From NCBI RefSeq assembly GCF_024223415.1, contig NZ_CP100500.1: 64,000 nt of DNA, one strand, 5' to 3'. This DNA is from Escherichia coli. Its GTDB lineage: Bacteria; Pseudomonadota; Gammaproteobacteria; Enterobacterales; Enterobacteriaceae. Below the pieces are notes generated by a model that saw only the letters and a list, made by a program, of their open reading frames with translations, ran no database searches and had not been told where the DNA came from. Shown piece by piece: positions 17,497 to 17,580 of this stretch. The position numbers and the translations under genes were made by a program. Numbering within the stretch: position 1 is the first letter of the stretch; each line of letters starts with the position of its first letter.

Positions 17497-17580
17497 GTCG
17501 GATGCGACGCTGACGCGTCTTATCCGACCTACGGGGAGCGCATTTGTAGGCCGGATAAGGCGTTTACGCCGCATCCGGCA
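17497..17580. repeat. REP/BIME palindromic units inside the phn operon (phnK-phnL spacer)
   Basis: Two REP-like units (gtcggatgcgacg…cgtcttatccgacctac; gtaggccggataaggcg…cgccgcatccggca). Confidence 0.75.

Follow-up and report, generated by a model that had tools for sequence, protein, structure and literature searches.

The window analysed here, a stretch of 64 000 nucleotides of Escherichia coli DNA (contig NZ_CP100500.1), carries the phn operon on its minus strand, and within this operon phnK and phnL are separated by a spacer of 110 nt (17476-17585) that extends from the TGA of phnK to the ATG of phnL. The parts of this junction are as follows.

17588-17586, minus strand: stop codon TGA of phnK, as given by the open reading frame list and by the K-12 and RefSeq annotation
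17580-17546, minus strand: y-type REP, reading TGCCGGATGCGGCGTAAACGCCTTATCCGGCCTAC (inverted repeat I4)
17533-17545, no strand: tail-to-tail linker of 13 nt, separating the two CTAC/GTAG feet and making up the loop of the predicted extended hairpin
17496-17532, plus strand: z-type (z1-like) REP, reading TGTCGGATGCGACGCTGACGCGTCTTATCCGACCTAC (inverted repeat I3)
17473-17485, minus strand: ribosome-binding region of phnL, with GAGG at 17485-17482, a gap of 6 nt and the ATG at 17475-17473
17476-17589, minus strand: spurious 5' extension of phnL from a TTG at 17589, non-coding, with the REP pair read in frame

In the sense of the mRNA the spacer reads TGA gccgg TGCCGGATGCGGCGTAAACGCCTTATCCGGCCTAC aaatgcgctcccc GTAGGTCGGATAAGACGCGTCAGCGTCGCATCCGACA cccgaaccacGAGGcgaaaaATG, with the y-type unit being the first hairpin transcribed downstream of phnK and the z-type unit following it with its GTAGG first. 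The CTAC tails of the two units point toward each other over the linker, and the y unit, linker and z unit together comprise 85 bp. The original prediction of two REP-type palindromes in the phnK-phnL spacer was hereby borne out, with regards to the sequence itself, the two inverted repeats and the REP copies found elsewhere in the genome, and both the position (17497-17580) and the spacer length of 110 bp that it gave were correct when compared with the sequence and the open reading frame list. Its notion that the other phn genes mostly overlap or abut one another holds for phnF to phnN in K-12, where the annotated junctions range from -8 to 0 nt with that between phnK and phnL as the sole exception. 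The L-M junction was also mostly at -4 to +1 nt in tblastn projections from 78 species, while the corresponding values for the J-K junction were left out as unreliable due to varying N-termini.

It had been pointed out in the prediction that a start of phnL further upstream would abolish the spacer, and there is indeed an uninterrupted open reading frame (16795-17589) with a TTG start at 17589, in which the REPs would encode an N-terminal extension of 38 amino acids. That reading was refuted and retains virtually no probability. The PhnL chain in the PDB entries 7z15 and 7z16 has 226 amino acids and aligns with the extended reading frame only from residue 39 (MINVQ), RefSeq has PhnL with the same start and 226 amino acids in K-12 (b4096) as well as in every other strain examined, and the GAGG Shine-Dalgarno motif is found 6 nt ahead of the ATG at 17475. 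The putative extension is furthermore not conserved, being replaced with unrelated DNA in 546 E. coli genomes and absent in Leclercia, Enterobacter and Citrobacter, while the flank CGAACCACGAGGCGAAAAATG immediately before phnL is kept even in those E. coli strains that carry the replacement. The start of phnL at 17475, as originally chosen and as found in PDB entry 7z15 and the K-12 and RefSeq annotation, is thereby settled, and we caution against annotating the in-frame read-through of the REPs as protein.

REPs have been described as imperfect palindromes of 30-40 nt having a GTAG foot and a mismatch in the stem, with REPs and inverted REPs forming pairs (Ton-Hoang et al., PMC3333891). Both units of the phnK-phnL spacer agreed with this description, being imperfect palindromes of 30-40 nt with a stem-loop that none of 200 shuffled sequences could fold equally well, having a CCTAC foot at 17528-17532 on the plus strand and at 17550-17546 on the minus strand, and showing, in each hairpin, an internal mismatch or loop that divides the stem into a lower and an upper part. 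A REP facing an inverted REP across a linker is, in addition, the arrangement of a BIME. The units also had many near-identical extragenic copies per genome. An exact second copy of the 35-nt y REP was thus found at 25446-25480 (0.00 expected from 100 dinucleotide-preserving shuffles), the core GATGCGACGCTNNCGCGTCTTATC of the z unit recurred at 25406 and 37433 (again 0.00 expected from the shuffles), the median number of places matched in an E. coli genome by a 501-nt megablast query over the spacer was 27, and a check of REP identity showed that both units align with genomic REPs. The feature was confirmed to be one copy of the E. coli REP/BIME repeat family, i.e. an ordinary element of an already known kind. 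Other REPs seen in the window were a three-unit cluster adjoining yjdN upstream of phnC (25398-25511), a head-to-head z1/y pair (37425-37502) and a lone degenerate y REP (56748-56761).

The palindromic units of E. coli are of the types y, z1 and z2, reportedly described by Stern in 1984 and by Gilson and Bachellier, and a review of them is given in PMC3333891. BIME-2 elements are built from y and z2 units with a short S linker, usually in tandem multiples. The element studied here has a y unit and a short linker, but it is a single pair and its z unit matches the GCGACGCTNNCGCGTC type of the window, which we take to be z1. BIME-1 elements combine y and z1 with a long, conserved L linker bearing an IHF site (PMC3333891) and have a size of about 140 bp (PMC1187871); this class was rejected for the phnK-phnL element, having a linker of 13 nt and a total of 85 bp. 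The pair is best called a single atypical BIME. A comparison with Rfam gave matches to naRNA4 (RF02564) with 42.8, 36.4 and 29.5 bits, all below the gathering score of 59.5, and matches to MIR531, HTT-AS1 and Xoo8 that we regarded as noise. Such naRNA4 matches mirror the likeness to REPs and are to be expected for any generic REP pair.

When folded as RNA, the y hairpin had a predicted energy of -22.4 kcal/mol (z = -3.7) and the z hairpin, in the sense of the mRNA, -21.3 kcal/mol (z = -5.2). The pair taken together was predicted to fold as a single extended hairpin of -57.7 kcal/mol (z = -8.4), accounting for 87% of the ensemble and being more stable than the two separate hairpins by 14 kcal/mol, in which y pairs with z over about 40 bp around the linker as a loop, with internal loops interrupting the duplex. 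With flanking sequence included, the value was -63.6 kcal/mol (z = -6.9). The extended stem is predicted to begin at 17582, only 3 nt past the TGA of phnK, and the canonical REP stem at 17579, i.e. 6 nt past it, with the Shine-Dalgarno motif and AUG of phnL lying outside the strong helices of the predicted fold. A consensus scan of positions 17000-18000 found no terminator-like sites, as the hairpin is followed by ACCCGAACCACGAGG without a U-run, and an intrinsic terminator was rejected on the basis of this G+C-rich hairpin having no U-run after it. The same interval held no sigma-70 promoter consensus, so that the consensus search does not point to a promoter of phnL inside the operon. The minimum free energy structure also contained a weak helix of 6 bp between the last phnK codons (UUUUGC, 17594-17599) and GCGAAA (17477-17482) before the phnL AUG, through which the stop codon of phnK and the start codon of phnL would meet at the foot of the REP hairpin; we did not build upon this helix, the partner sequences being different in other genera.

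The expectation that K-12 should carry the same REPs proved right, with its 110-nt spacer (b4096/b4097) being identical base for base. Strain S51 matched the 501-nt query across the site at 100% identity, and strains of K-12, B and O157 did so at 98.6%. Among 5,426 complete E. coli genomes, however, 546 (about 10%) had a spacer of 176 nt that holds BoxC elements rather than the REP pair. In this allele the common flanks stop at the TGA of phnK and resume at CGAACCACGAGGCGAAAAATG, and the insert is an inverted BoxC/PIT/TMECO pair, CCCTCTCCC...GGGAGAGGGTTAGGGTGAGGG, as identified with help of PMC4666352. The BoxC spacer is predicted to fold into a long hairpin of -100 kcal/mol (z = -7.1). Six sampled genomes of this type encoded one and the same PhnK (WP_001075526.1) and PhnL (WP_000611419.1), and five that were compared at the DNA level had 0-6 differences per 1,440 nt, whereas the number of differences rose to 42-46 when they were set against the window or K-12, the window and K-12 differing from each other at 41. 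Since the sampled BoxC genomes are near-identical in phnK and phnL, the pattern suggests a single replacement event, within one ordinary lineage of E. coli. Several divergent haplotypes and at most about 89% of the genomes have the REP allele, an upper bound inasmuch as an empty site would show a BoxC-like coverage of 81%, and this allele is the older state. Polymorphisms of the REPs among E. coli strains were single stem changes that were not compensated. In the bovine isolate E94, carrying the BoxC allele, phnL is annotated as frameshifted (557-1236 of the retrieved segment). A contig labelled as Pseudocitrobacter faecalis DSM 27453 (QNRL01000011.1) codes for a PhnL with about 100% identity to the E. 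coli protein of the window and has a phnK-phnL spacer of 298 nt with approximately four tandem BoxC-like units (1203-1500 of the retrieved segment); either the record is DNA of E. coli type that was mislabelled or transferred, or the BoxC slot occurs here in a still more expanded allele.

BoxC elements were also found at two other places of the phn operon in the window.

22848-22869, plus strand, and 22888-22909, minus strand: BoxC units forming an inverted pair between phnD and phnE
13878-13899: single BoxC/TMECO unit at the 3' end of the operon, just past the stop of phnP (13924-14682, minus strand)

The former is an inverted pair of the BoxC/TMECO triplex motif and occupies a phnD-phnE spacer of 131 nt (22801-22931). 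At this junction K-12 instead has a head-to-head REP pair, while strain WCHEC035123 has a spacer of 61 nt with only a short CCCTCTCCC/GGGAGAGGG palindrome, and about 529 of the 5,426 E. coli genomes match the BoxC type of the window. Considering what is found at phnD-phnE and at phnK-phnL, the phn operon thus has two junctions at which REP and BoxC are alternative alleles. The unit past phnP corresponds to TMECO no. 22 of K-12 (PMC4666352), and in WCHEC035123 an inverted BoxC pair follows phnP. In strain S51 (NZ_CP015995.1, 4530366-4530823) the phnD-phnE segment was 458 nt long, compared with 331 nt in the window (22700-23030), which indicates that S51 probably carries an extra BoxC-containing segment; either the two are different strains, or the BoxC copy number differs or was collapsed in one of the assemblies.

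Outside of E. coli, the phnK-phnL junction was recovered in 78 species, most of which had 7-45 nt between the two genes. Minimal junctions free of any element were seen in Leclercia (TAA GAGGCGAAC ATG), an Enterobacter sp. (7 nt) and a Citrobacter sp. (9 nt). Kluyvera, Lelliottia, the isolate RIT691, Enterobacter asburiae, Citrobacter werkmanii, Pluralibacter and Cedecea had REPs of their own species types at this place, amounting to three REPs within 160 nt in the case of E. asburiae, and two of these seven enterobacterial junctions displayed a tail-to-tail pair like that of E. coli. A metagenome-assembled Pseudomonas (Pseudomonas sp. UBA2684) had a Pseudomonas-type REP pair at the junction (1376-1500 of the retrieved segment), Pelagibacterium limicola (1291-1500) and Devosia geojensis (1248-1500) had G-rich, BoxC-like inverted pairs with a predicted -128 kcal/mol each in the retrieved segments, and Ensifer sesbaniae had a separate, different hairpin. 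In all, palindromes of at least four unrelated families occupied about 12 of the 78 junctions.

With about 10% of E. coli carrying a BoxC pair instead of REPs, and with related genera having empty junctions of 7-9 nt, the phnK-phnL element is dispensable or exchangeable in evolution. Two readings of the junction can be given, one being that it belongs to the small number of sites in the operon that can take up an insertion without damage and the other that a hairpin is favoured there. Because of the empty sites, the uncompensated polymorphisms and the 2:2 ratio of PhnK to PhnL (PMC9947105), passive tolerance would be the more economical reading compared with a selected hairpin.

Transcribed REPs resist 3'-5' exonucleases and stabilise upstream mRNA as well as decay intermediates (PMC12306157; PMC6061677; PMC4681348), for which PMC12306157 cites Newbury 1987 together with Khemici and Carpousis 2004. 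BIMEs can furthermore attenuate transcription (Espeli 2001, as cited in PMC12306157 and PMC6061677), and an upstream gene can be translated less when a REP follows its stop codon at a distance below 16 nt (Liang 2015, according to PMC12306157). By its position and stability, the phnK-phnL pair fits all three of these properties. We therefore consider it probable, with moderate confidence, that the element is a tolerated REP/BIME repeat that would fold just past the stop codon of phnK and act as an exonuclease barrier or attenuator as a by-product, rather than being a tuned regulator. In such a scheme, the transcribed pair would fold directly past phnK, either into one hairpin per REP, with about -22 kcal/mol apiece, or, preferentially, into the extended one of -58 kcal/mol. 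Exonucleases, for instance PNPase and RNase II, degrading distal phnL-P RNA in the 3'->5' direction, would stall at this hairpin and a part of the RNA polymerases might be attenuated at the REP pair, and by the combined effects phnC-K RNA should outlast and outnumber phnL-P RNA. The structured gap of 110 nt would also take the place of the tight translational coupling that may be presumed in species having junctions of 7-9 nt, with phnL retaining what should be its own exposed start, GAGG-N6-ATG. Acting as an exonuclease barrier or attenuator is the most likely physical consequence of the pair, by analogy with other REPs, and ribosome stalling at the termination of phnK is a plausible second effect. 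From known REP biology together with the predicted hairpins of -22 to -58 kcal/mol, it may fairly be inferred that the pair could stabilise mRNA with differential distal expression, as the original prediction had suggested. Such an effect would probably be incidental to a tolerated insertion and not a sign of tuned regulation, given that close relatives have the site empty or otherwise occupied.

Some observations fit less well with the reading of a tolerated repeat acting as barrier or attenuator. PhnK and PhnL have equal stoichiometry, whereby a step-down between them has no obvious stoichiometric rationale, and an idea that such a step would separate 'core complex' from 'accessory' genes was rejected, as both proteins are present 2:2 in the full Phn(GHIJKL)2 complex. 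The single and uncompensated polymorphisms among E. coli strains gave no sign of selection on the pairing, whereas the palindromes found at this junction in about 12 of 78 species could mean that a hairpin is favoured there. Full-text literature searches on phnK, phnL or the operon together with REPs yielded no phn transcript, half-life or protein data across the phnK-phnL junction, and no phn entries were found in the searchable supplements of RepRanger and Ton-Hoang. The phn operon is silent except under phosphate starvation, and it is for this reason that public 3'-end maps have no phn coverage; in one source of such maps (PMC6061677), 'phn' was absent.

A real but minor possibility, in our view, is that the pair is an inert passenger, i.e. 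a selfish or neutral repeat residing in the sole junction where it breaks nothing, without a measurable effect on phn expression. The empty junctions in Leclercia, Enterobacter sp. and Citrobacter sp., the complete replacement by BoxC in about 10% of the E. coli genomes, the uncompensated changes in the stems and the fact that BIME loci are hotspots of strain polymorphism (PMC1187871; PMC3333891) would all agree with this, as would the equal amounts of PhnK and PhnL that make a step unneeded. However, ribosomes and exonucleases would hardly pass unaffected over a predicted hairpin of -58 kcal/mol that lies 3 nt past a stop codon, and the replacing BoxC allele likewise forms a long hairpin, of -100 kcal/mol. 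An effect on ribosomes is the essence of a somewhat doubtful alternative, in which the pair would act as a translational brake on PhnK through mRNA cleavage and tmRNA tagging, giving less PhnK by the mechanism of Liang, Rudd and Deutscher (2015). The stem begins 3 nt (extended) or 6 nt (canonical) past the TGA and hence at the right position, but phnK was not found in the searchable supplements and PhnK is required as a dimer in the active complex.

The sequences also bear on a reading that we regard as unlikely, namely that the phnD-phnE and phnK-phnL junctions and the site past phnP are 'hairpin slots' of the phn operon, where long palindromic RNA structure as such would be selected from any repeat family, with REP and BoxC being interchangeable, and where the phnK-phnL slot would be palindrome-filled also in other Enterobacteriaceae, a Pseudomonas and Alphaproteobacteria. 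Were this true, the two halves of the transcript, phnC-K and phnL-P, would owe their relative amounts or their separate decay to the hairpin. Such separate fates could in principle also follow from cleavage by RNase III in the near-perfect duplex of about 40 bp formed by the paired REPs, splitting phnC-K from phnL-P RNA. This is very unlikely; the extended hairpin is predicted to be 14 kcal/mol more stable and to dominate the ensemble at 87%, but co-transcriptional folding should favour the two local hairpins first and internal loops interrupt the duplex. No mention of RNase III cutting REP pairs emerged from our literature search, and a term count for the RNase III mapping paper PMC6212723 gave no instance of the phrase 'repetitive extragenic palindromic'. 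Most improbable is a role at the level of DNA, with the BIME being a binding site for gyrase, nucleoid proteins or TnpA-REP in a long and strongly induced operon. REPs of y type are preferentially cleaved by gyrase, but the enrichment of gyrase was reported for multi-copy BIME-2 (y+z2) and not for single pairs of the y/z1-like kind (PMC6379681), the weak likeness to the nucleoid-associated naRNA4 model is at 36-43 bits with a gathering score of 59.5, and the BoxC replacement has no sequence in common with REPs.

As it stands, the finding has little import for phosphonate biology, this being a standard REP pair at the same site as in K-12, from which textbook REP effects are to be expected, and REP/BIME polymorphism among strains is already well documented (PMC3333891; PMC1187871). 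The phnK-phnL junction may nonetheless be regarded as a natural and evolutionarily tolerated insertion point, useful for tagging or engineering, and the REP and BoxC alleles at two junctions in combination with the empty sites of sister genera constitute a natural experiment on whether palindromes within operons are selected or tolerated.

Compared with known systems, the pair shares with the E. coli REP/BIME family the imperfect palindromes of 35-37 nt, the GTAG/CTAC foot, the stem mismatch, the extragenic location, the high copy number and the inverse pairing. It differs in combining a z1-like unit with a 13-nt linker in single copy, being typical of neither canonical class, and its z unit has GTCGGAT/ATCCGAC at the base instead of GCCTGAT/ATCAGGC, i.e. 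two compensated changes. With naRNA4, which is derived from REP325, it has REP sequence and structure in common, and the 42.8- and 36.4-bit matches cover the pair; since these scores fall under the gathering score the pair lies outside that family, and it is a relative through the REP family rather than a member. The BoxC/PIT/TMECO intrastrand-triplex repeats (PMC4666352) fill this slot in 546 E. coli genomes and do so likewise as an inverted pair with a long hairpin, whereas they belong to an unrelated, low-copy sequence family that is absent from 17497-17580 in the window. With the stop-proximal, ribosome-stalling REPs of Liang 2015 the phnK REP shares a stem located 3-6 nt past the stop codon, which is inside the limit of 15 nt (less than 16 nt in the rule as cited in PMC12306157), this being a likeness in position. 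Like the intercistronic REPs of the malE-malF type (Newbury et al. 1987, as cited in PMC12306157 and PMC6061677), finally, the phn element consists of inverted REPs between cistrons of one operon, with a hairpin lacking a U-tract that would be expected to block 3'-exonucleases and raise upstream mRNA over downstream mRNA, but the proteins flanking it in phn are equimolar in one complex, such that a stoichiometric logic of the malE-malF kind is not evident here.
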